Shown piece after piece: positions 7,591 through 52,092 of a stretch of 64,000 nt of DNA. The notes under the pieces are model-generated. The model was given only the letters and a program-made list of their open reading frames with translations, searched no databases and was not told where the DNA came from. The stretch lies in the IMG/VR virus record IMGVR_UViG_3300046096_000179, positions 63,124-127,123 of that record. One strand, 5' to 3'. This DNA is from a virus. Lineage: Duplodnaviria; Heunggongvirae; Uroviricota; Caudoviricetes. The first letter of the stretch is position 1, and every line of letters starts with the position of its first letter. A program made the position numbers and the translations under genes.

Positions 7591-7685
7591 CCAAAACAGA
7601 TTCTGGCTACCAAGGTAGCCATTTTCTTTTGAATGGCCTTGTAGCTCGTTTAAATCTGTTTTGGATATTTTAAATTGTTTTTTGG
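7591..7685 (+). terminator. compound stem-loop terminator: 12-bp outer inverted repeat (ccaaaacagatt/aatctgttttgg) around inner hairpin TGGCTACCAAGGTAGCCA, then a T-rich run
   Basis: Inverted repeats and T-run read directly from the sequence; lies between two plus-strand genes. Confidence 0.45.
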
Positions 7686-19388: not shown

Positions 19389-19573
19389 AGACTACTCACC
19401 TACCTAAGATCGACCCTGAGCAGTTTGAGCCACTGAATAAAAGTTGGTGGTCGCATAGATGGAGTGTATCCAACCCCATCATTCGTTTTCCGAGCATACT
19501 TGGGTTCTTCCTTGAACTCGCAAGAATGCGACAAACGATCCAAGACTCTATGGCTACAGTTAGAATTCCGTGA
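19385..19573 (+). CDS. DLP-leader family small protein (MKTTHLPKI...)
   Basis: Leader variant. Confidence 0.5.
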   Translation: MKTTHLPKIDPEQFEPLNKSWWSHRWSVSNPIIRFPSILGFFLELARMRQTIQDSMATVRIP

Positions 19574-19607
19574 TACAATAGAACCATCAACACGAGGAAC
19601 CTTCATC
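19561..19607 (+). promoter_or_regulatory. promoter-leader cassette
   Basis: ccgtgatacaatagaaccatcaacacgaggaaccttcatcATG. Confidence 0.55.
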
Positions 19608-20582
19608 ATGGGTGGAAATGCAATCAAATCAGCCAACCGAATCAACAAGCAGCAGTATGATGTTGCCGTGGATAAGTTGGAATCTATCCTGAATGGTAAT
19701 AGCATCATGAATGCTATCATCCCAGCTTACTTCAACAAGGAAACCTTTGGTGATATTGACGTGGTGATCGTTGAACCATTGACTGTCAATCAAGTCAAGG
19801 AGTTGTTCGGCGCAACAGAAATTGTCAAGAATTCCAATGTCATCTCCTTTGGTTTCAACGTCGAGGGTCTACCAACAATTCAAGTTGACTTGATCTACCA
19901 GTCAGAACAAACCTTTGAGTTTGCGGTTGCGTATTTCAGCTTCAATGACCTTGGCAATCTCATGGGTCGAATTTTTCACAAGATGGGAATGAAGTTCGGT
20001 CATGATGGTCTTTGGCTGCCAATAAGAGATGGTACAAATCAATTCCACGAGGTTCTTCTAACTCAAGACTTTGAGGAAGCACTTACGGTCGTTGGTCTGG
20101 ATTATGACCGCTGGTGTTATGGCTTTGCTGACCTGACCGACATCTTTGAGTTTGTTCGGTCATCCAAGTTCTTCAATTCTGACATCTATCTGCTTGATAA
20201 CCGGAATGCAATATCCAGAGTCCGTGACAGCAAGCGCAAGACTTACATGGAGTTCCTGAATTATAATGAGCAGAATCCATTGTCCCGATACACATTTGTA
20301 AAGGATAAGAGTTTCTATCTGCCGCTGATTTTCTCCTACTTCCCTGAAGCTGGCATGGAATACTTCACTGCCATGGAGGAACATCGAATGAAGATGGCCG
20401 CCAAGTTGATGTTCAACGGCGATCTGGTTCGGGACTGGACTGAACTTGAAGGTAAGTCATTGGGTGAATTTATGCGGGAACTCAAGGCAGCAAATCCCAG
20501 ACTCTGTGACTACAAGCTGGTCTTGGAGATGAGTGACGAGGAAATCAAGACAATGGTAATGACAACTTTTGGAGAGAAATGA
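19608..20582 (+). CDS. putative nucleotidyltransferase-fold protein
   Basis: GNS...(17)...FGDIDVVIVEP resembles the Pol-beta NTase G[GS]x(n)DhDh motif; 324 aa. Confidence 0.45.
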   Translation: MGGNAIKSANRINKQQYDVAVDKLESILNGNSIMNAIIPAYFNKETFGDIDVVIVEPLTVNQVKELFGATEIVKNSNVISFGFNVEGLPTIQVDLIYQSEQTFEFAVAYFSFNDLGNLMGRIFHKMGMKFGHDGLWLPIRDGTNQFHEVLLTQDFEEALTVVGLDYDRWCYGFADLTDIFEFVRSSKFFNSDIYLLDNRNAISRVRDSKRKTYMEFLNYNEQNPLSRYTFVKDKSFYLPLIFSYFPEAGMEYFTAMEEHRMKMAAKLMFNGDLVRDWTELEGKSLGEFMRELKAANPRLCDYKLVLEMSDEEIKTMVMTTFGEK

Positions 20583-21914: not shown

Positions 21915-22079
21915 ATGAAAACATCTGACTTCCCAAAAATCATCAAGCCGCCAACGACCCAACGACTTCTATCCGATGTGATGCAATGTGTTTTCACTTG
22001 TCTTAATGGTAAAATGTTCGTCACGGGACAGATGATCAGAGTTCCAATCATGCGTACATTCGATAGCATCAATAAATGA
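21915..22079 (+). CDS. DLP-leader family (MKTSDFPKI...)
   Basis: Below the track threshold; coordinates approximate. Confidence 0.45.
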   Translation: MKTSDFPKIIKPPTTQRLLSDVMQCVFTCLNGKMFVTGQMIRVPIMRTFDSINK

Positions 22080-22273
22080 AACTCAGAGACTTACCGATGG
22101 TTCCCAACACGGTGCATGATGGTCTGAATGGTTATCGAGTCAGCACAGATGTTTCTATTGGTGGTGCATGGAGAGGATATTCTTCTGCTACTATGAGTAA
22201 CGACGGATGTTGTGCTTTCTTAGTTATTGATGAGACATTTGAAATGATTTTTGACGATTATGAAAACTACTGA
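22076..22273 (+). CDS. DLP-leader family (MKLRDLPMV...)
   Basis: aaATGAaac overlap with the upstream stop. Confidence 0.5.
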   Translation: MKLRDLPMVPNTVHDGLNGYRVSTDVSIGGAWRGYSSATMSNDGCCAFLVIDETFEMIFDDYENY

Positions 22274-22463
22274 CCTACCATTAAACAATCACATTGATGT
22301 GTTGAGCACCGATGATTTGTGGGTGGTTGTTGGAATTGTTAAAGGTGCCGTAGGGCTTGCCACCAAAAGGTTTGCCACCAAAAGGTTTTGGTTAGACCCG
22401 GTTTACTTCAAACTGGGATTGCCCGTTAGAAATCAAATTTTTAACTTGGCGTCAAAAGAATGA
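22260..22463 (+). CDS. DLP-leader family (MKTTDLPLN...)
   Basis: Leader atgaaaactactgacctacca. Confidence 0.5.
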   Translation: MKTTDLPLNNHIDVLSTDDLWVVVGIVKGAVGLATKRFATKRFWLDPVYFKLGLPVRNQIFNLASKE

Positions 22464-22639
22464 AGACTACTGACTTACCTTTACAATATCGGATTGATGT
22501 ACGGATTCGGTGGGGTGTTTTTTTGCGTGTTGAATACGCCGCAGAGGATGTCACCCAAACGTCTATGTTTGAGCCGGTTTACTTAAAACTGATATTGCCT
22601 GTTAGAACTCAAATTTTGCAGTTAGCTCCAAAAGAATGA
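22460..22639 (+). CDS. DLP-leader family (MKTTDLPLQ...); body paralogous to the previous member (PVYFKLGLPVRNQIFNLA vs PVYLKLILPVRTQILQLA)
   Basis: ATGA overlap. Confidence 0.45.
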   Translation: MKTTDLPLQYRIDVRIRWGVFLRVEYAAEDVTQTSMFEPVYLKLILPVRTQILQLAPKE

Positions 22640-22800
22640 AGACGAGTGAGCTACCTAAAATCAACAAGTCACCACCGATCTATTATCAGATGGTTGGATT
22701 CATAGTGACTGTTGTTTCGATGAATGAAACAGGCAAACTTCCAATGATTCTTGTTGGCGTCCATGAAAACGATTGGGTGGTGGCTGTCTTGAGTTGTTAA
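22636..22800 (+). CDS. DLP-leader family (MKTSELPKI...), hydrophobic body
   Basis: ATGA overlap; approximate end. Confidence 0.4.
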   Translation: MKTSELPKINKSPPIYYQMVGFIVTVVSMNETGKLPMILVGVHENDWVVAVLSC

Positions 22801-23114
22801 TTTTTCTTTCTGGTGCTATAAGGAACCAAGTTTTCTGGGAGTGGACTGGAGAACCGAGATGGGTTGATTCGGTAGATGATTCCGGTCTTTGTGTCGATAT
22901 ACTTGTTGGCATTATGCGCCCGGATCGTGACATAACGACCTTTAATGACAGCATCCAGAGACTTCAATACGCCAATCAGGAAAACTTCATCGACGGTATC
23001 CCATATGTATTCAAAGCGATTAAAATTTCCTTGGAGAATTTCGTTGGTTATCTTAGTCTTCGCTTCTGCGAGCTTAAACCGACGCATCTTTTCCTTGGCG
23101 GCTTCAGTTTGCAT
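22797..23114 (-). pseudogene. remnant of the C-terminal domain of a GIY-YIG homing endonuclease (paralogue of 25646..26902)
   Basis: ITNEILQGNFNRFEYIWDTVDEVFLIGVLKSL matches ITNEILRGDFGRFEYLWDTVDEVFLIGVMKSL of the full gene; no GIY-YIG domain upstream. Confidence 0.5.
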
Positions 23115-23255
23115 TGGGTGGGATGATGATTCGTGCGTTGGGTAATCTGTGGTATAATGTCTTTACTTCAAAACAACGAGAGTATTTTGGGTATGACTAC
23201 GAGAATTTTAGTAAATCTATTGTAGATTTCAACGCTTAAATATTAGGAGTAAATA

Positions 23256-23441
23256 ATGAAAGAAGTCAGTTTTGATGTAATGTGTATTGACTCAGACGGA
23301 GTAGGATCATGGGAAGAAGTGATTTTAGACTCTGTACATGATGATCTAATGTTTGGCACTATTCGTCGCATTGGGAAACGGGTAAAATTCTGGGATAGTT
23401 CAGATGATTCTGAAGATGACTATACTGGTCTTATAATCTAA
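23256..23441 (+). CDS. hypothetical acidic small protein
   Basis: Good RBS attaggagtaaataATG; preceded by an extended -10 tctgTGgTATAATg near 23145. Confidence 0.45.
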   Translation: MKEVSFDVMCIDSDGVGSWEEVILDSVHDDLMFGTIRRIGKRVKFWDSSDDSEDDYTGLII

Positions 23442-23556
23442 ATTGTTTGAGGTACTATGAAAACAATCAAATTAATCTGGCATTACGTTCAATACTTACT
23501 GCTGCCTGTTGCGTTTATACAGCACTTGATTCCTTCTATGAAACAAGCGTTTAAAA

Positions 23557-24018
23557 ATGTCAGCTAGCTATGTTCTGTATAAGCAAGCAACACCAGAGCA
23601 AGCGCAGGCGTTTACAGCAGGTCAGGGCGTGAGGCTTGGTGCTTATGGTGACCCGGCGGCGATACCTAGGGCAGTGTGGGATAACATGCTATTGACTAAG
23701 GCATCATTCTGGACCGGTTACACGCATAACCTGAAGGTACAGCCCAGCATGGCGGATCTGTGCATGGTATCGGCAGATAGTCAACAGCAAAGCGCATCAG
23801 CCAAAGCACACGGGCGGCGAAGCTTCCGGGTTATACCCTTGACACAATGGCAAGCTAAAGGCAAAGCGTCAGTAGCATCTCACGAAATACTGTGCCCAGC
23901 TTCAGCAGAGGCAGGGGTGAGGGTTACGTGCGATAGTTGTAAGCTATGCAACGGGACGAAATCTAAGGGGAAATCTATTGCAATAATTGTGCATGGTCCG
24001 GGGGCAAAGTATGCATAA
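23557..24018 (+). CDS. hypothetical protein in a GC-rich island (possible foreign cassette)
   Basis: Local GC clearly above the phage average; Ala/Gly-rich; CDSCKLCNG. Confidence 0.5.
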   Translation: MSASYVLYKQATPEQAQAFTAGQGVRLGAYGDPAAIPRAVWDNMLLTKASFWTGYTHNLKVQPSMADLCMVSADSQQQSASAKAHGRRSFRVIPLTQWQAKGKASVASHEILCPASAEAGVRVTCDSCKLCNGTKSKGKSIAIIVHGPGAKYA

Positions 24019-24291
24019 TACATTGTTGCATAAATACAACAGTATAAAGCGGTGGTTACTTGCTGCGTTTATTGTAGCAGCATGCATGGCTTATCCGCTG
24101 GCTTTGCTGAGTGCATGATGCGGGTGCTGGCGTTTGTATAGCAAGACCGTTTGACCTGACGGTCGCACTAGCGTGAGATGATGCAAGGGTATAAAATAGA
24201 ACGATCGCGCTATTATTAGCGCTGGGAATATCTCGAATGGCTCTCTGAGGGTAACTTCAGGGGGCCTTTTCGCATGGACAATGTGCATATA

Positions 24292-24858
24292 TCAACGCAT
24301 AGAAACGCGCTGTGACAAGCGGTAGACCCCAATGCATACCCTAGCATCAACCAATGTTAAACGACGGCCCCTAGGGGCGTTTAAAGCGCTAGAAATGACG
24401 TCTGGGTTCTGTGTAGGATTATCATACCCAGTTTTGTTTCGGTAGTTTTCCGCTTTCTTATCAAGAAGCTCTTGGCTCTTTGATGGATGGTCAACATCAT
24501 AGACGTTGATCATTGCGGCGCGGAATGCATCCGTCCCATATGGCGTTATACTGGTATTGTTGTTCATGTTTAGCCACTCAGATGAAGTGGCGCAATCATT
24601 CTCAACTAAGAACTGGGTTTCGTAGTCATGAACATCACCAACTTCGTCTTTGGTTTTGATACTGATGACTCGGAAAGCAGCAAGACCTTCTTCCTCAATG
24701 ATTTTGTGAACGACCTTGGAACTGGTCTGGTATCCACCCGGTTGCATGAACTCTGATGGGTGACAGCCTTTAGCGTAACGACAACCGGCATATCGTTTGC
24801 CAGAAGCAACATGCTGAATGATGTAAAAATAAGGGACGTAAATAGGTTTGCTGGACAT
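24292..24858 (-). CDS. GIY-YIG homing endonuclease, shortened paralogue
   Basis: PIYVPYFYIIQHVASGKRYAGCRYAKG; after one repeat unit the C-terminus reads into GC-rich non-homologous sequence. Confidence 0.7.
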   Translation of the reverse strand: MSSKPIYVPYFYIIQHVASGKRYAGCRYAKGCHPSEFMQPGGYQTSSKVVHKIIEEEGLAAFRVISIKTKDEVGDVHDYETQFLVENDCATSSEWLNMNNNTSITPYGTDAFRAAMINVYDVDHPSKSQELLDKKAENYRNKTGYDNPTQNPDVISSALNAPRGRRLTLVDARVCIGVYRLSQRVSMR

Positions 24859-25044
24859 GCAGACTCCTTGTTTGTTTTAGAAGATGTTTAGAGGTAGCAG
24901 AGACTGCGAATCTCGTGGCTACCAACTTTATTTAGGGTTTCTTGATTTTGATGATAAAAAGTTGCGTTGTGGCCTAAAAGTTGTGATACAATACAGGCAT
25001 CGGACGTTGATTCGATTCAAACCTAACCATGAAGGACTAACCAA

Positions 25045-25671
25045 ATGTCAAATGAACTCACCCCATCGCAAGCAGCACTCATCCCACAGTACGTTTCGGA
25101 ATATGTGGCACACGGTTTCTACACCAGTTCCGGTACCCGTGAAGATGATGAACACATCGCTCGTGCAACCGAGCGCGCATACAAGAACGCTATTTCCCGC
25201 AAGCGCCACGATTCCATCACTAAGGTTCCGATGGTCGTGGTTGGTTCCATGAAGCAAGTCGTTCACATGATGAAGCAAACCATTCAAGGTGATGCCGACG
25301 CAATCAAATCCACGATTCAATCTGCTCGTCACAATGGTCAATTCCAAGCAGCAACTGATGCTCGATTCATGTTTCACTTGGAAGTTCTTGGGGTGGGTGG
25401 GGACGCGCTTGAATGGCATTGCGTATCTCCTTTGTACCGCAAGAACGGTGGGGTGTTTTTATTTCCTGAAATTTGTTTCTGCGTTCGTCCACCGATCCGT
25501 TTTGATGATGACTCTGACGGCAATCCCGTTCCGATCTGGAATGAAGAATCTGCGCCGACTGTTTATACACCTCAGAATCCAACTGACATCAACGATGTCA
25601 CGAAATACTCCGTTGAAGACATCGAAGACCTCCCCAACACCGTTGTCATTCAGGGAAAGAGCTTCCTTTAA
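25045..25671 (+). CDS. hypothetical protein
   Basis: Driven by ttgtgatacaatacaggca cassette variant between the two GIY-YIG genes. Confidence 0.55.
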   Translation: MSNELTPSQAALIPQYVSEYVAHGFYTSSGTREDDEHIARATERAYKNAISRKRHDSITKVPMVVVGSMKQVVHMMKQTIQGDADAIKSTIQSARHNGQFQAATDARFMFHLEVLGVGGDALEWHCVSPLYRKNGGVFLFPEICFCVRPPIRFDDDSDGNPVPIWNEESAPTVYTPQNPTDINDVTKYSVEDIEDLPNTVVIQGKSFL

Positions 25672-26902
25672 GCACAAAGTTAACGGGAAGGGGTTTGCTA
25701 AACATTGATTGGACTACGTAATACGTTTTGTTAGTCAAAACATCAACATACCCTTCCCTGCCAAGCTTCCCACTCTTGATGCTGATGTATCTCCCTTCCC
25801 CATATGTTCGGTTAAGGGATTTCATCACGCCAATAAGGAATACTTCATCTACGGTATCCCACAGATATTCAAATCGACCAAAATCACCTCGTAATATTTC
25901 GTTGGTGATTTTGTCTTCTGTGTTTTTATGTCTTGATGTCCGTATGCGATCAATGATGATTGGTGAGTGACTGGCGTTTTCTACGCCATATCTTTCTCTC
26001 ATCGTATCTTTGGCCTTCTCTCTAACTATCGGACACAGCAGTGCGGTTTCAACGCCACGGCTTTCCATATTGGTTTGCCTACTCTTGGCTTGAATCTCGG
26101 GAGACTTCATTTGATGATCGACCCCATATCGATCCATCAATGTTGATGTAGCTTTTGCTCTAACCACGGGACATTGTAGTACACTCCCAAATCCTCGTCG
26201 TTCCATGTTGGTCTGTTTGGTCTTTTCCCGGATTTCTTGTGCCTGCTGTGGAAATTCCGTTCCATATCTCTCAGTCATGGTCTGTCGGAATCTATCATGC
26301 GATTCTGGATTATGCATTGGATTTTCGACTCCATATCTATCATTCATGGTCTGTCGAACGGTTGCTTTAACTTCTTTGGCTTGCATTGGGTGGTCAACTC
26401 CCCATCTCTCTTGGCATGTTTTCTTAGCCATTTCCATGACTTCAGGTAACTGCAACGTGCAATCAACTCCATGACGAGCCTGATTTGTCTGTCTGATGGA
26501 TTCTATAAATGCTGGATGATGGGAGACGTTTTCGACGTCATATCGGTCTCTTAGGATGTTCTTAAATTCTTCCGAACCAAATGCGGGGCGTTTGTTGTTG
26601 TGCATATTGAACCACTCTGATGAAGCAGCACAATTATTCTCAACCAAGAAATTTGTCTCGTAGTCATGGACATTGCCAATTTCATCTATGGTCTTAATTT
26701 CGACCACGACAAATGCATCAATGCCTTCTTCCTTGATGATTTTCTTAATCTTCTTGGAACTGGTTTTGTAACCATCTTCGGTCATGAACTCTGATGGATG
26801 ACAGCCTTTGGCAAAGCGACAACCGGCATACTTCTTTCCAGAAGCAACATGCTGAATGACGTAAAAGTAAGGGACGTGCGGATAAATAGGTTTGCTGGAC
26901 AT
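25646..26902 (-). CDS. GIY-YIG homing endonuclease with seven tandem ~33-aa repeats
   Basis: PIYPHVPYFYVIQHVASGKKYAGCRFAKG; repeats of the form ...R(Y/W)GV(E/D)(N/H)PM..PE(V/I)..K... Confidence 0.8.
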   Translation of the reverse strand: MSSKPIYPHVPYFYVIQHVASGKKYAGCRFAKGCHPSEFMTEDGYKTSSKKIKKIIKEEGIDAFVVVEIKTIDEIGNVHDYETNFLVENNCAASSEWFNMHNNKRPAFGSEEFKNILRDRYDVENVSHHPAFIESIRQTNQARHGVDCTLQLPEVMEMAKKTCQERWGVDHPMQAKEVKATVRQTMNDRYGVENPMHNPESHDRFRQTMTERYGTEFPQQAQEIREKTKQTNMERRGFGSVLQCPVVRAKATSTLMDRYGVDHQMKSPEIQAKSRQTNMESRGVETALLCPIVREKAKDTMRERYGVENASHSPIIIDRIRTSRHKNTEDKITNEILRGDFGRFEYLWDTVDEVFLIGVMKSLNRTYGEGRYISIKSGKLGREGYVDVLTNKTYYVVQSMFSKPLPVNFVLKGSSFPE

Positions 26903-27078
26903 GCAGACTCCTTGTTTGTGTTAAGAATGTTTAGAGGTAGTGGGAACGCCAATTCCGCGACTACCAACTTTATTTAGGGGTTCTGGATTTTTGATGATAA
27001 ACTGTGATACAATACATACATGAACAATCAACACTCAACCAACAATACTGGCGTCATCCCCGGTAAGTCTGAACTCTG

Positions 27079-27261
27079 ATGCAAATAGAAAATCTACCCA
27101 CGATCCAAGAATGCTATACATCCGTAAGTGTTGGGTTGTGGGTAGTTCTTCGAGAAACAATTTTCAGCATGTCGGACGCCAACACGGTAGACTCTTTGGA
27201 TGACCCGTTGTATGTTGCGGTTGCTAGTGACGTCGATTGGGTGTTTAATGAAAACTACTGA
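27079..27261 (+). CDS. DLP-leader family (MQIENLPTI...)
   Basis: Downstream of the aactgtgatacaatacatac cassette. Confidence 0.45.
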   Translation: MQIENLPTIQECYTSVSVGLWVVLRETIFSMSDANTVDSLDDPLYVAVASDVDWVFNENY

Positions 27262-27415
27262 CCTTCCTGTTTTGGCACCAATTGTCTCTGGTGTATTGAA
27301 GGCTGATGCGTGGCATCATATCATCTGGGTATCAATGACCTCTACACCATGGGATAATCTTGGGAAGAAGGTGCGCGCTTCTCTGATTAAATTGATGCCG
27401 TATGATATCTTCTAA
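27248..27415 (+). CDS. DLP-leader family (MKTTDLPVL...)
   Basis: Leader. Confidence 0.5.
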   Translation: MKTTDLPVLAPIVSGVLKADAWHHIIWVSMTSTPWDNLGKKVRASLIKLMPYDIF

Positions 27416-27584
27416 TCTTCCACAAATCAAACTGCCACACGCCATGAACTGGTATGTACATCAAATGGATGCCGCAACAAGCGTGATGATGTTGAAATCC
27501 ATCAAGATTTGGGATGCTGTATACCAACAAGTTGATTGGGCTGTCTCTGACCATTTGTGGAGATTGACCGATGAAAACATCTGA
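27402..27584 (+). CDS. DLP-leader family (MISSNLPQI...)
   Basis: Leader variant. Confidence 0.5.
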   Translation: MISSNLPQIKLPHAMNWYVHQMDAATSVMMLKSIKIWDAVYQQVDWAVSDHLWRLTDENI

Positions 27585-27753
27585 CCTGCCACAAATCAGA
27601 TCATCCTACGGTGAAGTCTTTGGCGTTGGATTATGGGCAGTTCTTAGAAAAGTTGCTTCTGAAACTGACCTGTATATTGCAGCAGAAGAACGACCATGTG
27701 TTGTTGATGTAAATGTTGATCGGATTTTGTGGAATATTTACTACTTGTTATGA
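27571..27753 (+). CDS. DLP-leader family (MKTSDLPQI...)
   Basis: Upstream stop lies in accgATGAaaacatcTGA. Confidence 0.5.
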   Translation: MKTSDLPQIRSSYGEVFGVGLWAVLRKVASETDLYIAAEERPCVVDVNVDRILWNIYYLL

Positions 27754-27827
27754 AAACATCTGAATTATCAAAAAATCCAACTAAAACCAAGTCCTCTGAA
27801 CTTGTCATGGAGAGTAATCATTGGTAA
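27750..27827 (+). CDS. DLP-leader family, very short (MKTSELSKNPTKTKSSELVMESNHW)
   Basis: Approximate coordinates; may be a decayed member. Confidence 0.3.
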   Translation: MKTSELSKNPTKTKSSELVMESNHW

Positions 27828-27913
27828 TTCCTTTCCGTGGGGATTGGCTATAATAAAAGGTATTGATGCGGATGACTCGGGGTGGCAAGTTCTGAAACGA
27901 TTGGTTGGTAAAA

Positions 27914-28033
27914 ATGAAAATCTCTGACATACCGAAAATTGACCATGTGTTGTATAATACATGCGCCGCTTCTTGGTATGCCGGTGATATGGACGGCGCA
28001 TCATACGAGATGGTAAAAATAATCAAGATTTGA
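27914..28033 (+). CDS. DLP-leader family (MKISDIPKI...)
   Basis: Approximate coordinates. Confidence 0.35.
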   Translation: MKISDIPKIDHVLYNTCAASWYAGDMDGASYEMVKIIKI

Positions 28034-28101
28034 AATTTTGGTTACCAGCAAGTGGATTGGGCTGTCTCCGAGCATCTGTGGTATATTAGAGTTGATTGAA
28101 T

Positions 28102-28266
28102 ATGAAAACATCTGACCTGCCGAAAATCCAAGTTGAGAGCCAGAGTATTTTGAGCGTGTCGTGGAAAGCAATCATACCATGTCTGCCGTGGTCGAACGAT
28201 CCGTCAAATATGCGGCCGGACGTTCATTGTCACCTACGTTGGTTGATTAAGCATGAAAACCTCTGA
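28102..28266 (+). CDS. DLP-leader family (MKTSDLPKIQVE...)
   Basis: Stops at the TGA inside the next member's TCTGAC. Confidence 0.45.
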   Translation: MKTSDLPKIQVESQSILSVSWKAIIPCLPWSNDPSNMRPDVHCHLRWLIKHENL

Positions 28267-28456
28267 CCTACAATACATACAGAACATAGATAATGGTTAC
28301 TTGGATGACGCACCGTCGGACACTTACTTTGCAGTAGTCGAAGACTCCACATTATTTGGATACCAATCCCCTTACCTATGGGACTTGGTTGACGCAATTG
28401 ACGATCCATTATTTAAAATCGAAATTCACATCTATGACACCTACCATGATCAATAA
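28253..28456 (+). CDS. DLP-leader family (MKTSDLQYI...)
   Basis: Leader. Confidence 0.5.
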   Translation: MKTSDLQYIQNIDNGYLDDAPSDTYFAVVEDSTLFGYQSPYLWDLVDAIDDPLFKIEIHIYDTYHDQ

Positions 28457-28943
28457 ACTGACTCCATATTTCACCCCACTAGGAATTGACGTCTCCAAGG
28501 TTCCATTCCATGACGGTTTTGCTGGCTCGATTTATGTCGGACAGTTTCCCTATGCAGGTAAGAATCGTCAAGGTGAACTGACATTCCTTGACTATCCAGT
28601 AGATGTCTTCTATCAACCGAATCCCAAGGTTGAACTGGGGCATTCCCATTACTTCTCGGTCTATACTCGTCATGGTCATTCCTATGTCAGCGATGCATCC
28701 TATGTCACTGACCTAAGGCTTAATGGCGTTGTTGACTCCACTGGCAATATCCTGTATGCTAGGTTCCAGCATGACTTCCGATATACCAATGACGGTAATG
28801 CCGGGGTTGATGGTGGTGGATGGATGAAAGATGGTGATGTCTGGAGTATGTGGGGTCGCACCATTGGTGATAAGGATGGAAACTTCCCCAAGATGGTTCT
28901 GCTCCGTGTTGTTGATGGAAAGCTGGTGCAGGATGAAACTTAA
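28434..28943 (+). CDS. hypothetical protein (about 169 aa) embedded in the array, without the leader
   Basis: Track ORF 28356..28943; first plausible ATG (MTPTMINKL) lies at the end of the preceding member. Confidence 0.45.
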   Translation: MTPTMINKLTPYFTPLGIDVSKVPFHDGFAGSIYVGQFPYAGKNRQGELTFLDYPVDVFYQPNPKVELGHSHYFSVYTRHGHSYVSDASYVTDLRLNGVVDSTGNILYARFQHDFRYTNDGNAGVDGGGWMKDGDVWSMWGRTIGDKDGNFPKMVLLRVVDGKLVQDET

Positions 28944-29131
28944 ACAGCTATCGGTCATTGAACCATCAATGTCGTTTGTCAACATCAAAAAAAGAGTTGA
29001 CTCCATCTCCGGTAGGAGAGGGTTTGATTATGTTTCAAGGTCTTACCTATGGGTTGACATGATCAACGCGGATTTTGGTAGAGAACTTTTTACGGCGGTT
29101 CATTCGGCATTCAGTGGGTGCGTCCGTGGAA

Positions 29132-29302
29132 TTGAGTGAACTGCCGAAGTCTCATCAGTTAGCGGCGAGATTTGATGTAATTAGTCGCCCACTCGCTGGC
29201 GGCATTTTAAGCGCGATCATGGAGAATGAGCATAATGTATGGCGATGGGTGCGTTATCCGGTGCAGCAAGTTCTTGAACGGGTAAATGATGAAATCTTCT
29301 GA
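29132..29302 (+). CDS. DLP-leader family, TTG-start variant ((M)SELPKSHQ...)
   Basis: ttgagtgaactgccgaag matches the minus-strand TTG variant at 50357. Confidence 0.4.
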   Translation: MSELPKSHQLAARFDVISRPLAGGILSAIMENEHNVWRWVRYPVQQVLERVNDEIF

Positions 29303-29483
29303 CCTACCGAAAATACCAATCCCAAGAACCGGGTGGAATGTCTGTTTTGATGCGCATGTTTCGATGAATGACGCATTGGATGAATCATCTGGGATTGAGG
29401 TGCAGTCCGAAGTGATTAACAAAATCGCGTTTCCGGTCTTGGGTATCATGCGCCGGATTTGTGCCAGTACACCGAGTTCTTGA
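29286..29483 (+). CDS. DLP-leader family (MMKSSDLPKI...)
   Basis: Leader. Confidence 0.5.
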   Translation: MMKSSDLPKIPIPRTGWNVCFDAHVSMNDALDESSGIEVQSEVINKIAFPVLGIMRRICASTPSS

Positions 29484-29491
29484 ACGAGTGA

Positions 29492-29692
29492 ATGATGAAA
29501 TCTTCTGACCTGCCAACCATTGCTGTCCCTATCACGAACTTCCATGTTGTTCATGATGTATCAATCCTGTTTGGTGATTTTCTTGGTTTCGCCGAGTACG
29601 AAACATTTGATAAAATCAGAACGCCTGTGATGAATTCTTTGATTCCAACACTTTTTTCCATGGAACTCGAATTTTTAAGTTATAAAATATAA
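29492..29692 (+). CDS. DLP-leader family (MMKSSDLPTI...)
   Basis: Leader. Confidence 0.5.
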   Translation: MMKSSDLPTIAVPITNFHVVHDVSILFGDFLGFAEYETFDKIRTPVMNSLIPTLFSMELEFLSYKI

Positions 29693-33791: not shown

Positions 33792-34250
33792 ATGACCAAC
33801 CGTAACTATGAATTTGTAACAGACGACACCATCGTTATTAATGGGGTGACATTGACTCGTATTCGGGCGATTAAATATATACCCCACCATAGGGCAACAG
33901 ATGGTGAGCTTGGTGGCTATATCGAAAAATATGAAAATTTAACAGAAAACTCATGGGTTTCTGGTAATGCCCGTGTTTCTGGTAATGCATGTGTCTATGG
34001 CGATGCCCGTGTTTCTGGTAATGATAATGTCAAATCGACATCAGATTACATCACCATCGGTCCAGCAAAATCTTCTGGTCGGTACATAACCGCATTTGTT
34101 GATTATAAAATCGGAGTTAAGATTGTGACGGGTGATTTTACTGGTTCTATTAATGAATTCAAGTCAGCTATTGAATCCACACACCAAAACAATGAGCAGA
34201 ATTTGAAACAATATCGCGCATTTGTTTTCTTAATTGAAGCCTCATTCTGA
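33792..34250 (+). CDS. hypothetical protein with tandem SGNARV hexapeptide repeats
   Basis: WVSGNARVSGNACVYGDARVSGND. Confidence 0.55.
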   Translation: MTNRNYEFVTDDTIVINGVTLTRIRAIKYIPHHRATDGELGGYIEKYENLTENSWVSGNARVSGNACVYGDARVSGNDNVKSTSDYITIGPAKSSGRYITAFVDYKIGVKIVTGDFTGSINEFKSAIESTHQNNEQNLKQYRAFVFLIEASF

Positions 34251-36550: not shown

Positions 36551-36569
36551 TCAAAAAGCGAAAGTAAAC

Positions 36570-36821
36570 ATGCCAGCAATTGTCAGAAAAGGTGACAAGG
36601 ATACGGATGACGACGCCATGGTCACCGGCTCTCCAAATGTCTTTGTTAACGGTATCGCTGCAACCAGACATGGCGACAAGGATACGGATGACGACCAGAC
36701 CATCACCAAAAAACCATGGAATGTGTTCATCAATGGAATTCCAGTATCCAAGGTTGGAGACAAGGATACGGACGATGACACGAAAATGCAGGGATCACCC
36801 AATGTTTTTGTCAATGATTGA
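36570..36821 (+). CDS. PAAR-repeat protein (T4 gp5.4-like tail-spike tip)
   Basis: Three repeats GDKDTDDD...GSPNVFVNGIAATRHGD, matching the PAAR consensus GSPxVFINGKPAARxGD. Confidence 0.65.
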   Translation: MPAIVRKGDKDTDDDAMVTGSPNVFVNGIAATRHGDKDTDDDQTITKKPWNVFINGIPVSKVGDKDTDDDTKMQGSPNVFVND

Positions 36822-37059: not shown

Positions 37060-37150
37060 GAAGGCCATTTAAGGCCCCTCTGAGGCTCTGTAAACAAAAA
37101 TGGCTACCGAGGTAGCCATAATCGTTTCTGTAGGCTTGTAGAGCCTTTTA
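37060..37150 (+). repeat. structured intergenic element containing hairpin TGGCTACCGAGGTAGCCA (copy 2 of 3)
   Basis: At a convergent gene junction; shares TGGCTACC(A/G)AGGTAGCCA and ttgtagNgcc motifs with 7591..7685 and 59990..60085. Confidence 0.5.
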
Positions 37151-47330: not shown

Positions 47331-47467
47331 TTGTTTGTTTCCATTGCCAAGTCTCTGGCTTCACGTTCTGAATCTGCTTCCACTTCGACTTCTTCCGAGT
47401 AGGTGTAGATTTTCTTTACAATGAAAGTTGGCATAATGTAGTTTCCTTGTTTGATGACTCTATTGTA

Positions 47468-47797
47468 TCACAGAAAATGTCGGCGATTCACCAAGCAAAC
47501 ACTCATCGTTTTCCCGCCATTGACAGAATGGACTTCCCATCCTTCAAATTCAGGGAAGTAGATTTCCGTCCAGTTGGAATCGTCATTGCCATCAGAGATC
47601 AGCATTGATGGGAAGAACGTCAACTTTCCGTCAGTCATCACGGAACGACAAGGAGTTTCGCAGTAGGCGCGTCCAGTATTACCCCATCCATCCAAACAGA
47701 AAGCAACGACGTTATCAGCCCGGATGACCATGTAGCCTTCTTCACCAACAACGGCATCGCCTTGATGATTAACTGTAACTTTGATCGTATTGGACAT
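47468..47797 (-). CDS. hypothetical protein
   Basis: Minus-strand cassette immediately upstream (47798..47850). Confidence 0.5.
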   Translation of the reverse strand: MSNTIKVTVNHQGDAVVGEEGYMVIRADNVVAFCLDGWGNTGRAYCETPCRSVMTDGKLTFFPSMLISDGNDDSNWTEIYFPEFEGWEVHSVNGGKTMSVCLVNRRHFL

Positions 47798-47850
47798 GAT
47801 GTGGTTCCTTGTTTCGATGGTTCTATTGTATCACAGAAAATCAACTGTAG
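47798..47850 (-). promoter_or_regulatory. promoter-leader cassette (minus strand)
   Basis: Reverse complement is ctacagttgattttctgtgatacaatagaaccatcgaaacaaggaaccacatcATG. Confidence 0.6.
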
Positions 47851-47855
47851 TCGAT

Positions 47856-48401
47856 TCAAGTCCACAGACTTCTGTAGTATTTTCCGAACAATCTCAAACC
47901 ATTGGCGATTCGTTTCTGTCGCTGATCATGTTTAACAAACTCTCCATTCAGAATCATCTCAGTTTCTTCATCGTCACAAACAATCTGCTCAAATGTCCAG
48001 ATCATCTCATCAAGAATCCACACCCACCGCGCATGGAAATGCCCATCGGTGTGATAGTCGTCCTCTGCAGGGAGTAGAGTCGAGTGTAGCCAGATTGGTA
48101 CATCAGAGTCCTCTGTGTATGGAGAGCCGTGCTTCTGTTCTTTGAGCTTTTTCAGCATTGGTAAGATGATGAGCGCCAGAGTGTGATCGGTATTCCAAGT
48201 ATCAAAGTCATCGATCCGAACATCAATCTTTCGCTTCTTCTTAGAATGCACCCACTCACAGAAGTCATTGAGCCAAGTCTCGGATAGCCATTCACCAAAC
48301 GCGTAAACACGGTCATCTTCCTTGTCCATCCAGAACAGAAGTATTCCGGCTATCTGGTATGGCCCATACCAAGTGGTGTAGTTTGAGATTTTAACTTTCA
48401 T
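47856..48401 (-). CDS. hypothetical protein
   Basis: 181 aa. Confidence 0.5.
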   Translation of the reverse strand: MKVKISNYTTWYGPYQIAGILLFWMDKEDDRVYAFGEWLSETWLNDFCEWVHSKKKRKIDVRIDDFDTWNTDHTLALIILPMLKKLKEQKHGSPYTEDSDVPIWLHSTLLPAEDDYHTDGHFHARWVWILDEMIWTFEQIVCDDEETEMILNGEFVKHDQRQKRIANGLRLFGKYYRSLWT

Positions 48402-48419
48402 TATATTGTAGTAGGGAAA

Positions 48420-49745
48420 CCTAACCGTCTTTAGCTGTTAGGAGGAATTGCGAAAGGGTAAATAGTGACATGGAACAACTCAAAGCATTCAAATATAGAA
48501 TCTATCCGACAGCAGATCAAATCAATCGGTTGTCACGGTTCTTTGGTGCAAAGCGTTGGGTCTATAATCACTTCTTGAAGTCTAACACTGAACGCTACAA
48601 AAATCAAGAGAAGCATCTATCTAATTTTGATTGTAACAAAGAAATCACATTCCTCAAGAAAAATGCTGATACATCTTGGTTGAAAGATGTTGACGATTGG
48701 GTCTTGAAACATGCTTCAGAGGACTTGGCAACAGCCTACAAAAACTTCTTTGCTTCTATTACTGGTAAGCGCAAGGGACCGAAAGTTGAACTCCCGACGT
48801 TCAAGAAGAAGTCAAACAGACAATCATACCGGACTCGCGGCGTGAAGGTTGATTTTGAAAATGGCACATTCACTGTGCCGAAAATCAAAAACATACCATG
48901 CAAGTTCCATCGACATTTCCTTGGAACTATCAAGAACGCAACCATCTCCAAAACTCCTGATGGGAAGTATTTCGTTTCATTCTTGGTTGATGCCAACGTC
49001 GCATTGCTGCCACAAACAGAGCGCGAAGTTGGCATTGACTTTGGGATTAAATCATTGGCGGTTCTATCCACCGGACATGAAATTCAGCCATTGAACACAC
49101 AGCTTGAGAAAATCAATCGAGCTATCAAACGTGCTCAGAGAATCCTTGCACGAAAAACAAAGGGTTCGACGAACAGAGAGAAGCAACGAGTATTACTGGC
49201 TAAATTATTTGCCCGGAAGACTCGAATACGCGAACACTATTATCACGAGATTTCGAGTTTTTTGGTCAAGAACTTTGATGCAATTTACTTGGAATCACTG
49301 AATATCAAAGGGATGATGAAGAACAGGAAACTGTCCAGAGCAATCCAAGAATGCTCGTGGTTTTCGCTGATCTCAAAAATATCATACAAATCCAACTTCT
49401 ACGGTAAGACCTTTCACCAGATTTCCAGATGGTTCCCATCATCCAAGACTTGTTCTTGTTGTGGGTTCAAACTGGACAAGTTAAGCCTTGACGTTCGTGA
49501 ATGGTCGTGCCAATCTTGTGGAACACATCATGATCGTGACCTAAACGCTGCCGTGAATATCCTATACCAAGGGCAGATGGATTTGTATGAACAAAAACAA
49601 CCGCAGGAAACAGGCGGTTTGGAACTAAAAATTCCATATTCCTTGCAGAAACATACCACTAAAATCGAGAGATCAGCGGAAGAAATTGCCGTTGTTGGTA
49701 TGTGGAGCAGGAAAGCCTAACAGTCTTTAGCTGTTAGGTAGTTTA
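48420..49745 (+). mobile_element. IS200/IS605-family insertion sequence carrying only tnpB (IS1341-like)
   Basis: Terminal palindromes cctaaccgtctttagctgttagg (48420..48442) and cctaacagtctttagctgttagg (49716..49738) flank an intact tnpB; same ends found on the MITE at 39144..39371. Confidence 0.7.
48470..49720 (+). CDS. tnpB: TnpB (OrfB_IS605 RNA-guided RuvC-like nuclease)
   Basis: N-terminal AFKYRIYPT...FG..RWVYN; RuvC-I GIDFGIK; RuvC-II YLESLN; zinc finger CSCCGFK...CQSCG; RuvC-III HHDRDLNAAVNI. Confidence 0.85.
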   Translation: MEQLKAFKYRIYPTADQINRLSRFFGAKRWVYNHFLKSNTERYKNQEKHLSNFDCNKEITFLKKNADTSWLKDVDDWVLKHASEDLATAYKNFFASITGKRKGPKVELPTFKKKSNRQSYRTRGVKVDFENGTFTVPKIKNIPCKFHRHFLGTIKNATISKTPDGKYFVSFLVDANVALLPQTEREVGIDFGIKSLAVLSTGHEIQPLNTQLEKINRAIKRAQRILARKTKGSTNREKQRVLLAKLFARKTRIREHYYHEISSFLVKNFDAIYLESLNIKGMMKNRKLSRAIQECSWFSLISKISYKSNFYGKTFHQISRWFPSSKTCSCCGFKLDKLSLDVREWSCQSCGTHHDRDLNAAVNILYQGQMDLYEQKQPQETGGLELKIPYSLQKHTTKIERSAEEIAVVGMWSRKA

Positions 49746-50194: not shown

Positions 50195-50204
50195 TCGATT
50201 CGAT

Positions 50205-51038: not shown

Positions 51039-51063
51039 TTGATTGGTGGCTTTACTAAGTTTA

Positions 51064-52033: not shown

Positions 52034-52092
52034 GATTTAGGTTCCTTTTGTTGGTTTAGATGGTTCTATTGTAACACCAAAATCAACTGTAG

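Follow-up and report, generated by a model that had tools for sequence, protein, structure and literature searches.

Why should two homing endonuclease genes (HEGs) of one phage each be preceded by the same small hairpin, with its letters changed and its stems still paired? Homing endonucleases need enough expression to spread but not enough to harm the carrier phage, and the question here is whether the hairpins are a relic of a local duplication or part of how such genes are run. The window, by which we mean the whole 64,000-nt stretch of DNA analyzed, carries the following endonuclease genes.

25646..26902, minus strand: endonuclease gene 2 (ORF list, Pfam and PHROG matches)
24292..24858, minus strand: endonuclease gene 1, N-terminal fragment (188-aa ORF; residues 1-154 are 91% identical to P0006)
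22797..23114, minus strand: endonuclease gene 1, C-terminal fragment (104 aa, 94% identical to P0006 residues 287-390)

Gene 2 is an intact ORF of 418 aa with an N-terminal GIY-YIG-like domain and DUF7487 repeats. A protein identical to its product, P0001, is present on 8-9 metagenome contigs, and in L003 the identical gene and leader occur in a second genomic context. The initial annotation had described two GIY-YIG genes on the minus strand; both ORFs exist, but their SegE_GIY-YIG profile scores (18.8 bits for 24292-24858 and 20.8 bits for 25646-26902) are weak and lie below the cut-off of 25, and the first copy is broken rather than intact. The DUF7487 profile scored 27.8 bits for the 188-aa ORF and 136 bits for the 418-aa ORF, the window's endonuclease genes matched the PHROG 'homing endonuclease' annotation at 2.8e-29, and the motif PYFYII...KxYAG...R...YETxFL.EN is kept across the endonuclease family. 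Beyond residue 154 the gene 1 ORF continues into an out-of-family tail, and the two gene 1 fragments are split by a 1.18-kb insert (23115-24291) bearing plus-strand ORFs. The first copy of the leader precedes this broken gene.

Alignment of the two loci revealed homology from within the genes, across the ATG, to ~95-100 nt upstream, with identities of 82% over the first 120 nt of the ORF, 88% from the ATG to the hairpin, 69% in the hairpin itself, and 83% in the 40 nt beyond it. The ~100 nt of near-identical upstream sequence first described was recovered, but in copy 1 it does not continue unbroken into the cassette promoter, as an insertion of ~23 nt precedes TGTGATACAAT. The hairpins and the nearby promoter elements are as follows.

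24893..24923, both strands: hairpin copy 1, GGTAGC a GAGA ctgcgaa TCTC gtg GCTACC
26936..26965, both strands: hairpin copy 2, GGTAGT g GGAA cgccaa TTCC gcg ACTACC
24982..24992, plus strand: extended -10 element TGTGATACAAT, promoter for the plus-strand gene 25045-25671
27003..27013, plus strand: extended -10 element TGTGATACAAT, next cassette promoter (repeat families D1, D3, and D4; outside the leader family)

The TTGACT -35 element of other cassette promoters is absent from both of these TGTGATACAAT promoters. The two hairpins match letter for letter those in the initial annotation, and its claim that the stems stay paired through compensating changes was borne out at all four pairs at which the copies differ (4/4 compensated): from copy 1 to copy 2, C-G becomes T-A in the outer stem, the isolated middle A-T becomes G-C, and in the inner stem A-T becomes G-C and G-C becomes A-T. 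Copy 1 consists of an outer stem of 6 bp, a C-A-C whose A pairs to T, an inner stem of 4 bp, and a 7-nt loop, and its hairpin is identical to that of an intact allele in L012; copy 2 has an outer stem of 6 bp, a C-G-C on the sense 5' arm with a G:C pair, an inner stem of 4 bp, and a 6-nt loop. The predicted fold contains the hairpin on either strand for both copies, with a stability of -12 to -14 kcal/mol and a position 33-34 nt before the ATG of both genes; folds of the whole leader (~100 nt) were no more stable than shuffles (z -0.1 to -1.6). The window holds two occurrences of the pattern GGTAG..CTACCAAC where 0.01 were expected, and by covariance model and pattern search the hairpin is found in the window only at the two HEGs.

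Outside the window, a covariance model seeded with 14 copies (97.4% paired; 10/11 pairs changed on both sides) recovered 58 distinct copies on metagenomic T4-like phage contigs from freshwater and other sources, all immediately 5' of an endonuclease gene. Every match to covariance model R1 lay immediately before an HEG ORF and on its strand; the window copies scored 62.6 bits (copy 1) and 65.3 bits (copy 2, minus strand), and model R2 scored copy 2 at 65.3 bits on the plus strand. The analysis of covariation in further homologous copies that had been suggested for this locus was run on these 58, and the changes were compensatory and not non-compensatory: 97.3% of cells pair on the HEG strand as compared to 65.5% when shuffled, double-sided changes occur at 11/11 pairs, the covariation score is 0.857 versus 0.242, and none of 500 shuffles did as well in either pairing or covariation. 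With the 3' partners shifted by 1-3 columns, pairing fell to 33-52%. Selection for pairing, and thus a nucleic-acid structure maintained by compensatory change, is strongly supported. The leader also lies 5' of an I-TevIII-like HNH gene (L020:911-1609), and the endonuclease genes that the stem-loop accompanies belong to more than one nuclease family. In two Vsr-like DUF7487 HEG loci tested, the motif was absent. The hairpins of the window belong to a leader that many phages carry as part of a mobile endonuclease cassette, and are not the product of a local duplication.

Not all positions of the hairpin vary alike. The bulged C13 and C15 are invariant (58/58), a C-T-A following the stem is kept in 57-58 of 58 copies, and the G16-C pair is GC in 54/58, whereas elsewhere the stem is free to vary. 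The loop is unconstrained in sequence, and its two orientations are equally common (24 T..G-type and 24 C..A-type), with reverse-complement loops found on identical stems (TTGGCG/CGCCAA, TTGCCG/CGGCAA, TGGGGA/TCCCCA, and TTCCAG/CTGGAA), and outer- and inner-stem types occur in mosaic combinations among close relatives.

Read along the HEG strand, the layout is a late-promoter-like box, 3-5 nt, a bulged 11-bp stem-loop beginning with G, CTA, the Shine-Dalgarno (SD) sequence, the ATG, and, in codons 2-7, a second box in the opposite orientation, here called the anti-box.

26971..26978, minus strand: late-promoter-like box CCTAAATA, copy 2 (6/8 to TATAAATA; 5 nt before the first stem G)
24929..24936, minus strand: late-promoter-like box CCTAAATA, copy 1 (5 nt before the stem)
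26931..26935, minus strand: post-stem motif UCUAA (sense), copy 2, from column counts
26908..26913, minus strand: Shine-Dalgarno AAGGAG of gene 2 (5 nt before the ATG, ~22 nt past the hairpin, outside the stem)
26881..26888, plus strand: anti-box GATAAATA, copy 2 (7/8 to TATAAATA; sense TATTTATC, codons 5-7; predicted start G 26894)
24837..24844, plus strand: anti-box CGTAAATA, copy 1 (6/8; predicted opposite-strand start G 24850)

The family consensus of the first box is the T4 late box, TATAAATA, which is exact within 40 nt upstream in 32/59 copies (controls, ~1%) and lies 3-5 nt from the stem in 44; L003, which carries the same cassette as copy 2, has a perfect TATAAATA. The T4 late box sits about one helical turn upstream of the start, its first base being numbered -13 (PMC2988020). 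The base preceding the stem is a pyrimidine in 54/58 copies and the first stem base a purine in all 58 (G in 54). Because the sense box of the window matches at 6/8 and the anti-boxes at 6-7/8, and TAAATA is not enriched in the window, promoter activity in this phage is uncertain. Across the family the stem is followed after ~10-22 nt by the SD, and 25-28 or 33-36 nt separate the stem from the ATG; the ribosome-binding site is not sequestered by the hairpin.

On the opposite strand, the plus strand of the window, 42 of 54 copies have an anti-box that agrees with TATAAATA in at least 7/8 letters, exactly so in 15, at a fixed position (exact matches in controls, 0/1080), and the anti-box tracks the hairpin and not the enzyme (32/45 versus 16/75; Fisher p=1e-7). 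The codon preceding it is always NNT, whatever the amino acid. A CAGCA is conserved 4 nt from the anti-box, independent of the position of the ATG, and the arrangement therefore has the box-N4-pyrimidine-purine geometry of a start site.

Pairing also differs between the strands. Away from the loop end, the sole non-Watson-Crick cells on the HEG strand are 15 A·C cells, which are G·U on the opposite strand, and G·U on the HEG strand is limited to the loop-closing pair; the middle pair is GC in 38 copies, AU in 10, A·C in 10, and G·U in none. Paired cells amount to 99.7% on the opposite strand versus 97.3% on the HEG strand, an asymmetry that comes mostly from one isolated pair between two bulges, in sequences that are phylogenetically related. 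RNA pairing rules are thus best obeyed on the plus strand, opposite to the endonuclease gene; predicted stabilities are alike for the two strands (-9.8 vs -10.1 kcal/mol, p=0.28). A T-run, defined as at least 5 T in 8 nt starting 0-2 nt past the stem, is present on the opposite strand in 54/58 copies and on the HEG strand in 0/58 (background 14%), although this T-richness is confounded with the complement of the sense box; for copy 2, the box read on the plus strand is the T-rich tail AACTTTATTTAGG. T-runs adjoin the stem even where the box is displaced (L033, L041, L134, L084, and L052). The first 1-3 nt past the stem on the plus strand are usually mixed A/C/T rather than U and the stem is bulged; with such first tail bases the terminator would be weak by canonical rules, and a terminator scan did not call the two window hairpins. 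The hairpin and T tail lie 40-50 nt downstream of the predicted anti-box start region, and the HEG is antisense to its upstream neighbor in about two thirds of loci (35 vs 19).

To judge from these sequence features, the hairpin leader probably controls the timing and amount of the DNA-cutting enzyme made. Our leading reading, which we hold tentatively and at a little under an even chance, is a bidirectional late-expression leader: a 5'-terminal hairpin of the late HEG mRNA that is also a terminator on the opposite strand, with promoters, starts, and termination all read from sequence. A portable cis-regulatory leader of this kind would move with the free-standing HEGs of T4-like phages, its two convergent late-promoter-like boxes having the hairpin at their center and acting on both strands. 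The late transcript would start at the first stem G. On the HEG strand the 5'-terminal stem-loop would protect the late message while the leader stays open; on the plus strand the intrinsic-terminator-like stem-loop with its U-rich tail would halt RNA running antisense through the HEG. Such antisense RNA could come from read-through of neighbors or be a short late RNA begun at the anti-box; the predicted antisense RNAs (~26894-26977 and 24850-24935, ~85 nt) would be complementary to the HEG leader over its full length. Taken together, these actions would confine and damp endonuclease expression and insulate the neighboring genes. The invariant bulged C's and the CUA have no explanation in the bidirectional-leader model. 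For the one third of HEGs that are co-directional with their neighbors, it is not obvious what an opposite-strand terminator would act on. The anti-box also admits another reading, as the 3' half of a long-range helix formed with the box.

A further step, possible but in our view doubtful, is that the leader is a self-contained, antisense-controlled module in which two convergent T4-type late promoters ~70-85 nt apart yield two RNAs, the HEG mRNA and an antisense RNA. The mRNA would arise from the hairpin foot and a late antisense RNA of ~70-85 nt from the anti-box in the first codons; the latter would span the whole 5'UTR, ribosome site included, and end at the same hairpin, its U-tract being the complement of the sense promoter box. 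Because all of its parts lie within ~100 nt, the module could pass from phage to phage and from one nuclease family to another (GIY-YIG and HNH). If true, it would be the selfish endonuclease's own dosage limiter.

The same two boxes also allow a sense-strand explanation, a translational switch of the classical T4 HEG type, which we consider unlikely but deserving of weight. Here, box and anti-box would form a helix (P1) in early or middle read-through RNA that blocks initiation by enclosing the hairpin (P2), the SD, and the AUG, with P2 a scaffold that shortens the P1 loop and a 5' stabilizer in late RNA; the late RNA starts past the box and would therefore lack P1 and be translated. The T-even genes I-TevI, I-TevII, I-TevIII, segB, and Aeh1 mobE place a late promoter in or at an inhibitory hairpin (PMC2988022), and Dassa et al. 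saw TATAAATA in HEG hairpins (PMC2677866). Box and anti-box do form an inverted repeat, 63-89 nt apart; the fixed stem-to-ATG distance and the start-site geometry fit as well. Their complementarity extends past the 6-nt core by 1.81 vs 1.16 nt (permutation p=0.0004), with long helices in L053 (14 bp), L133 (10 bp), and L016 (10 bp) and perfect helices of 10-12 bp in the variant leaders L085, L092, and L093. However, the likeness of the flanks of the two boxes within a phage could equally reflect that phage's promoter context, P1 is in most copies a short helix of A-U pairs only, and flank covariation is weak (66.9% vs 63.4% paired). Pairing of the two boxes in read-through RNA as predicted by RNAfold reaches 0.97 (L016, L025, L023, L124, and L182) but averages 0.25, and in the two window copies P1 is 6 bp with a pairing probability of 0.10-0.13; the unpaired probability of the ribosome site across the family shifts only from 0.55 in late RNA to 0.45 in read-through RNA. 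Two thirds of loci have no co-directional upstream gene to provide such RNA, and the switch gives no account of why the mismatches are all A·C, why T-runs adjoin the stem even where the box has moved, or why CAGCA is conserved.

The invariant positions would be accommodated if the hairpin were an operator, whose stem only presents the bulged C's and the CUA to a protein or other trans factor, such as the polymerase, an RNase, or an RNA-binding protein of phage or host. Invariance at C13, C15, and the C-T-A, and near-invariance of the G16-C pair in an otherwise free stem, are needless for a plain terminator or a plain 5' stabilizer. We nevertheless regard an operator as improbable, as no candidate factor was identified and the loop is free in sequence and flips orientation. 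The endonuclease itself is excluded as partner in both of its parts: its DNA-binding domain because the C-terminal domains vary widely among carriers, and its GIY-YIG domain because an HNH gene bears the same leader.

Still weaker, and very improbable as a full account, is a structure acting at the level of DNA with no RNA function, in which a hairpin or cruciform extruded from the palindrome would be a recombination or template-switch hotspot that helps the cassette swap its 5' module. Exact reverse-complement loops on identical stems are a signature of hairpin-mediated minute inversions in DNA, but loop flipping reveals DNA events and not a selected function. The mosaic of stem types among close relatives, the position of the hairpin as the most divergent stretch of the duplicated region, and the break of homology in L003 at the box/hairpin edge all agree with a hotspot, as does L005, which joins the copy-1 hairpin to the copy-2 ORF but may owe this junction to chimeric assembly over 45 identical nt. 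A hotspot needs identity, not kept bulges, fixed distances to box and ATG, or a one-sided T-rich tail. Finally, a recent duplication with paired changes arising by chance, to which the presence of just two copies in the window and the unremarkable whole-leader folds might point, is refuted by 58 distinct copies on unrelated contigs in which the helix is kept while every pair changes, by the shuffles, none of which matched, and by the collapse of the slid controls.

The three functions offered by the initial annotation, a 5'UTR stabilizer, a translational attenuator, and a recombination hotspot, remain the candidates, and none is proven. With at least 58 distinct copies, the covariation is strong enough to define an RNA family missing from Rfam; a search of Rfam 15 (cmscan of 22500-27500, E up to 10) returned only noise and no match at the hairpins. 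Sequestration of the ribosome-binding site in a handful of T-even genes is the only worked-out form of HEG control, and the hairpin leader, read as a bidirectional late-expression leader, would be a second and widespread design. In ~100 nt it offers a compact model for late promoters that converge, for a hairpin put to two uses, and perhaps for the control of a selfish gene by antisense RNA, as well as a marker for mobile endonuclease cassettes and insertion boundaries in phage metagenomes.

Antisense RNA across an HEG has a precedent in a T4-like phage: CfrI, an RNA of ~225 nt, reportedly overlaps the HEG of cyanophage S-PM2 and links psbA to it. We know of no relation of CfrI to a leader hairpin or to convergent late boxes. 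The promoter-terminator cassettes (PeSL, promoter-early stem-loop) of T4-like hyperplastic regions, proposed sites of modular exchange (PMC2839356, PMC4122927), resemble the window loci, where, on the plus strand, an early sigma-70-type promoter comes within 60-80 nt after the hairpin; both combine a stem-loop with a promoter between small ORFs of a plastic T4-like genome region. However, PeSL stem-loops lie between or over the -35 and -10 elements at dozens of sites, in intergenic positions flanking ORFans, whereas the hairpin leader occurs twice in 64 kb, both times at HEGs, has its stem 60-80 nt from the -10, and travels with the HEG and not with the early promoter; the true PeSL-like cassettes of the window are separate repeat families, D1-D6.

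A very stable hairpin immediately upstream of the ribosome-binding site of a GIY-YIG HEG, with the site not sequestered, has been described for seg43(25) of Aeromonas phage 25 (PMC2988022); the likeness is by description, and no family-level conservation was reported for it. Further parallels are the late-promoter-linked regulatory hairpins of the T-even HEGs I-TevI, I-TevII, I-TevIII, segB, and Aeh1 mobE (PMC2988022), which share with the hairpin leader a stable 5'-leader hairpin, a TATAAATA late promoter (a putative one in the hairpin leader, with CCTAAATA in the window), a box that can be the 5' arm of an inhibitory pairing, and the presumed purpose of restricting the enzyme to late times. 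In the T-even type the ribosome-binding site is inside the hairpin and the late start within it, whereas in the hairpin leader ~10-22 nt lie between the stem and the SD, the box precedes the stem by 3-5 nt, and the start is predicted at the first stem base, which would keep the whole hairpin in the late RNA. With this predicted start, a late start inside the structure is not a property of the conserved hairpin, but it would be one of the weaker box:anti-box helix. I-TevIII leaders showed no sequence or covariance-model similarity to the hairpin leader, whose pairing rules, unlike those of I-TevI/mobE-type hairpins, favor the opposite strand.

Another parallel is with the HEGs of environmental T4-like phages described by Dassa et al. 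in 2009 (PMC2677866), of which 15/16 had a 5'UTR hairpin and ten had TATAAATA. Those hairpins accompany free-standing GIY-YIG and Vsr-like HEGs at 'fractured gene' loci and, as here, are common to nuclease families. Their text reads them as mobE-like sequestration of the ribosome-binding site, gives no covariation statistics, and does not note the anti-box, the strand asymmetry, or the loop inversion. The features it does describe (an HEG 5'UTR hairpin, TATAAATA, and two mutually complementary conserved motifs) are all present in the hairpin leader, which, on a comparison by description only, may well belong to the same motif family.

The two endonuclease genes on the minus strand, which lie against their neighbouring + strand genes, resemble each other well beyond their coding sequence. 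The loci align from within the genes through the ATG and for ∼95-100 nt past it, as the initial annotation had described, and the hairpins are exactly the sequences that it gave, at 24893-24923 (copy 1) and 26936-26965 (copy 2). The hairpin is the least conserved part of this duplicated region, with 69% identity vs 82-88% on its flanks, and all base pairs that differ between the two copies (4/4) are compensated, again in agreement with that description. Its pattern occurs twice in the window, vs 0.01 occurrences expected. The leader had also been said to end in a cassette promoter; the shared sequence runs straight into TGTGATACAAT in copy 2 but not in copy 1, and the cassette −35 element is missing from the promoters beyond both leaders.

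The genes themselves had been called two GIY-YIG genes. Both ORFs exist and have GIY-YIG-like N-termini (the SegE_GIY-YIG profile score is under its cut-off), and they match homing endonucleases among the PHROGs (2.8e-29), but copy 1 is broken. When it is compared with the intact relative protein P0006, residues 1-154 correspond to 24292-24858 and residues 287-390 to 22797-23114; between the two parts a 1.18-kb insert (23115-24291) stands in place of the central DUF7487 repeats. An intact allele of copy 1 with the same leader is found in metagenome contig L012. The copy 2 protein has DUF7487 repeats, and several metagenome contigs (JGI, Logan) encode an identical protein.

24292-24858, minus strand: endonuclease ORF copy 1, 188 aa
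25646-26902, minus strand: endonuclease ORF copy 2 (HEG2), 418 aa
23256-23441 and 23557-24018 (weak DUF7227 match), plus strand: ORFs in the copy 1 insert

We retrieved metagenome and IMG/VR contigs with relatives of the N-terminal domain, and the same hairpin was present in the same place in all close relatives and in many distant ones. Fourteen copies (97.4% paired, 10 of 11 pairs changed on both sides, equalled by 0 of 500 shuffles) served as the seed of a covariance model of the endonuclease strand, CM R1, and a search of ∼170 loci (∼650 kb of fetched sequence) returned 72 matches, 59 of them distinct, all on the endonuclease strand and immediately 5′ of the ORF. In the resulting 58-sequence alignment, 97.3% of cells are paired, as compared to 65.5% in shuffles, and every one of the 11 pairs has changed on both sides. 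None of 500 shuffles reached the covariation score (0.857 vs 0.242 shuffled), and sliding the 3′ partners by 1-3 columns as a control brought pairing down to 33-52%. The additional copies thus show compensatory change and not the non-compensatory change that the initial annotation had named as refuting its reading. We conclude that the hairpin is a real structure under selection, as that reading held, now on the strength of covariation across a family. The same motif also lies 5′ of an HNH endonuclease related to I-TevIII (L020:911-1609); it is part of endonuclease cassettes generally and is not tied to one catalytic domain. In six loci of cultured phages whose related GIY-YIG genes lie inside operons (ACP17, phiN3, PX29, Ps15, KARL-1, and V45v66), CM R1 did not detect the motif, and two loci of Vsr-like or DUF559-like DUF7487 endonucleases also lacked it by this model. 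An Rfam search gave no matching family for the hairpin, the exact 19-mer CTACCAACTTTATTTAGGG was not found in IMG/VR, blastn at distant settings with the leader as query returned only noise, and megablast found no DNA-level relatives of 24200-27100 among 50,697 phage records.

On the endonuclease strand the leader has a constant layout. Upstream of the stem is a box of the T4 late-promoter type, which is an exact TATAAATA within 40 nt in 32 of 59 copies vs ∼1% of control windows; 44 copies have it at 3-5 nt from the stem. Both window copies read CCTAAATA here, 5 nt away from the stem. The T4 late promoter is an 8-bp TATA box about one helical turn before the start, with its first base at −13 (PMC2988020). 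A pyrimidine precedes the stem in 54/58 copies, and the stem itself opens with a purine in 58/58 (G in 54). This arrangement fits a late transcript starting at the foot of the stem, and such a start would explain why the outermost G-C is near-invariant while other pairs vary. As for the late-promoter consensus of this phage, TATAAATA occurs once and TAAATA 16 + 8 times in the 64 kb, and enrichment is not evident. The hairpin consists of a 6-bp outer stem, C-R-C on the 5′ arm, a 4-bp inner stem whose first pair is a near-invariant G-C, and a variable loop of 6-7 nt. All 58 copies have both C's of C-R-C, whose R is matched by a Y on the 3′ arm. C-T-A follows directly after the stem in 57-58 of 58 copies, and the Shine-Dalgarno sequence (SD) and ATG come next, with 25-28 or 33-36 nt from stem end to ATG. 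The invariance of the bulged C's and of CUA points to a specific partner of the leader.

The pairing is not equally good on the two strands. Stem cells read on the endonuclease strand comprise 619 Watson-Crick pairs, 15 A·C, 2 U·G (both in the loop-closing pair), and 2 others, and every A·C becomes a G·U on the opposite strand; standard pairs amount to 97.3% on the endonuclease strand vs 99.7% on the window + strand (models built per orientation). The isolated middle pair is G-C in 38 copies, A-U in 10, and A·C in 10, and never G·U. Such an asymmetry would be expected if pairing were selected in RNA, or single-stranded DNA, of the + strand. Predicted stabilities of the two strands do not discriminate (−9.8 vs −10.1 kcal/mol, p = 0.28). 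A T-rich tail follows the stem on the + strand: a simple terminator rule is satisfied by 54/58 copies vs 0/58 on the other side and a 14% background. Where the box is displaced, the T-run still adjoins the stem (T8 in L033 and L134; T5-T6 in L041, L084, and L052).

The + strand also has what may be a promoter of its own. An inverted copy of the box, the anti-box, lies within codons 2-7 of the endonuclease genes (sense TATTTAT[A/C], peptide x-I-Y). Read on the opposite strand, it lies at a fixed offset and agrees with TATAAATA at 7 or more of 8 positions in 42/54 copies, with 15/54 exact; among controls within the same genes, 0/1080 were exact. The codon ahead of it is always NNT irrespective of the amino acid, CAGCA is kept 4 nt from it whether in the 5′UTR or in codons 2-3, and its presence tracks the hairpin and not the enzyme (32/45 vs 16/75, p = 1e-7). 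From the fixed offset, the NNT codon, CAGCA, and the association with the hairpin, we infer that the anti-box is an element of the leader at the nucleotide level. Its geometry is that of a late promoter (box, 4 nt, pyrimidine, purine), and on the + strand the hairpin follows ∼40-50 nt later, which makes a compact predicted unit of promoter-like box, start, ∼40 nt complementary to the SD and UTR, stem-loop, and T-tail.

24837-24844, plus strand: anti-box copy 1, CGTAAATA
26881-26888, plus strand: anti-box copy 2, GATAAATA
∼24850-24935 and ∼26894-26977, plus strand: predicted + strand units

The strand bias in pairing, the T-tail, and this compact unit lead us to favor a leader that would work in both directions. 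On the endonuclease strand, the hairpin would be the 5′-terminal stem-loop of a late endonuclease mRNA; on the opposite strand, it would halt RNA running antisense through the endonuclease gene; a dedicated antisense leader RNA may be among these transcripts. Of the carriers, about two thirds (35 vs 19) are antisense to their upstream neighbor.

The strongest alternative also makes use of the anti-box. Box and anti-box are inverted copies separated by 63-89 nt, and in read-in RNA they can pair to enclose the hairpin, SD, and AUG, a classical late-switch logic in which the hairpin is a scaffold. Their complementarity past the core exceeds that of permuted partners (p = 0.0004) and extends to 14 bp in L053, although two boxes of one phage could share flanks for promoter reasons, and covariation of the flanks is weak by formal count (66.9% vs 63.4% paired). 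For this helix RNAfold predicted a probability averaging 0.25 and reaching 0.97 in some copies; the values for the two window copies are 0.10-0.13. Variant leaders, whose hairpin is a different and perfect one of 12 bp, form box:anti-box helices of 10-12 bp. Such a switch leaves the A·C-only mismatches, the T-runs, and CAGCA unaccounted for; it may coexist with a function on the opposite strand.

A recombination hotspot, another suggestion of the initial annotation, survives as a property of the element. Loop orientations are equal in number in alignments A7-A9 (24 of the T..G type vs 24 of the reverse-complement C..A type), copies with the same inner stem can have loops that are exact reverse complements (GGAA-TTGGCG-TTCC in window copy 2 vs GGAA-CGCCAA-TTCC in L033 and L040), loops flip even among close relatives (L053/L056 vs L061), and close relatives combine stem types in mosaic fashion. 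To judge by these patterns, minute inversions and exchanges occur in the DNA of the palindrome, but they account for neither the bulges nor the boxes nor the one-sided tail. Sequestration of the ribosome-binding site by the hairpin was rejected, predicted accessibility of the site being 0.55 in RNA beginning at the stem vs 0.45 with 100 nt more upstream.

Narrower readings also failed. CTA(A/G) as a stop completing a three-frame barrier against entering ORFs was in the uncovered frame in only 19/55 copies, as by chance. CTA as the TAG stop of + strand ORFs 24760-24891 and 26798-26977 was rejected because the frames differ between the two copies and the ORFs appear to be an in-register antisense artefact. 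A second hairpin, CUCUAA/UUAGAG, hiding the SD is found in only a few copies and is not conserved.

The endonuclease cassette is mobile, and its leader travels with it. In contig L003 (1-180), HEG2 with its hairpin and UTR recurs unchanged behind different upstream sequence. Homology sets in where box and hairpin meet, and the box of this contig matches TATAAATA perfectly, 3 nt ahead of the stem. In L005 (1-80) a copy-1-type hairpin is joined to the copy 2 ORF, either by recombination or by a chimeric assembly through 45 nt of identical sequence. A second type of leader, invisible to the covariance model, was seen in L085, L092, L093, and L094 (∼1390-1510). Its layout is that of the main family (box, 4 nt, G-started hairpin, CTAAC, SD, ATG, anti-box), with a perfect 12-bp stem without bulges and 10-12 bp of box:anti-box complementarity.

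The source of the window is a distant T4-like phage. A gp43-type DNA polymerase fragment has ∼40% identity to cyanomyovirus gp43, and PHROG matches include a gp2-like DNA end protector, tail-sheath stabiliser, baseplate hub, small terminase, DnaB-like helicase, and NAMPT. The polymerase gene may be split, with its parts ∼18 kb apart. Between ∼9 and 36 kb, most genes are short + strand ORFs preceded by a recurring early-promoter cassette, TTGACTACAGT...TGTGATACAAT...AAGGAAACTACATCATG, in which a short ACAG/CTGT inverted repeat lies between −35 and −10. Other features of the window are as follows.

9424-35889, plus strand (at least 11 copies), and 47427-56552, minus strand (6 copies): early-promoter cassettes with conserved 5′UTR, TTGACTACAGT..TGTGATACAATAGAACCATC..AAGGAAACTACATCATG
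30-1262 and 19464-20582, plus strand: ORFs matching DNA-polymerase PHROGs, the first corresponding to the C-terminal half of a gp43-type polymerase
21915-29692, plus strand: run of small ORFs (54-70 aa; N-terminus MKTSDLP or MMKSSDLP; repeat families D9, D10, D16, D18), starts overlapping the preceding stop, neighbors 70-80% identical in DNA
7604-7621, 37101-37118, and 60018-60035: near-identical hairpins TGGCTACC(A/G)AGGTAGCCA with conserved GCCTC...TAGAGC-like flanks and a T-run after at least the first; candidate phage terminators, or else a repeat element of another kind
33952-34023 and 36555-36779: tandem coding repeats, periods 18 nt (three copies) and 81-84 nt (three copies)
48470-49720, plus strand: 416-aa transposase-like ORF, TnpB/IS605-OrfB-like (PHROG transposase families, phrog_506, 4e-114)
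62143-63492, plus strand: third homing-endonuclease-like ORF (phrog_655), overlapping the 5′ end of the DnaB-like helicase gene (60975-62186, minus strand); no copy of the leader motif at this ORF

The early-promoter cassettes are similar to the promoter-early stem-loop (PeSL) cassettes of T4-like hyperplastic regions. PeSL cassettes are a different element from the leader, and the window's own PeSL-like promoters do not include its hairpin. The hairpins of T-even endonuclease genes have the same presumed purpose as this leader but differ in their relation to the ribosome-binding site and to the start; sequestration of that site is the defining trait of the I-TevI, segB, and mobE mechanism (PMC2988022). 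CM R1 found no motif in the I-TevIII leaders of U5 and Klebsiella EI, and there is thus no homology with the characterised T-even hairpins. Nearer to the window leader are the hairpins that Dassa et al. (2009, PMC2677866) reported from ocean and lake metagenomes, where they lie 5′ of free-standing genes of GIY-YIG and Vsr-like type, with TATAAATA and two conserved motifs complementary to each other. Compared by description, these are probably the same family, known earlier descriptively. The window leader is of a known kind, the leader hairpins of homing-endonuclease genes, with covariation at family level, no Rfam entry, and an unexpected signature of function on the opposite strand.
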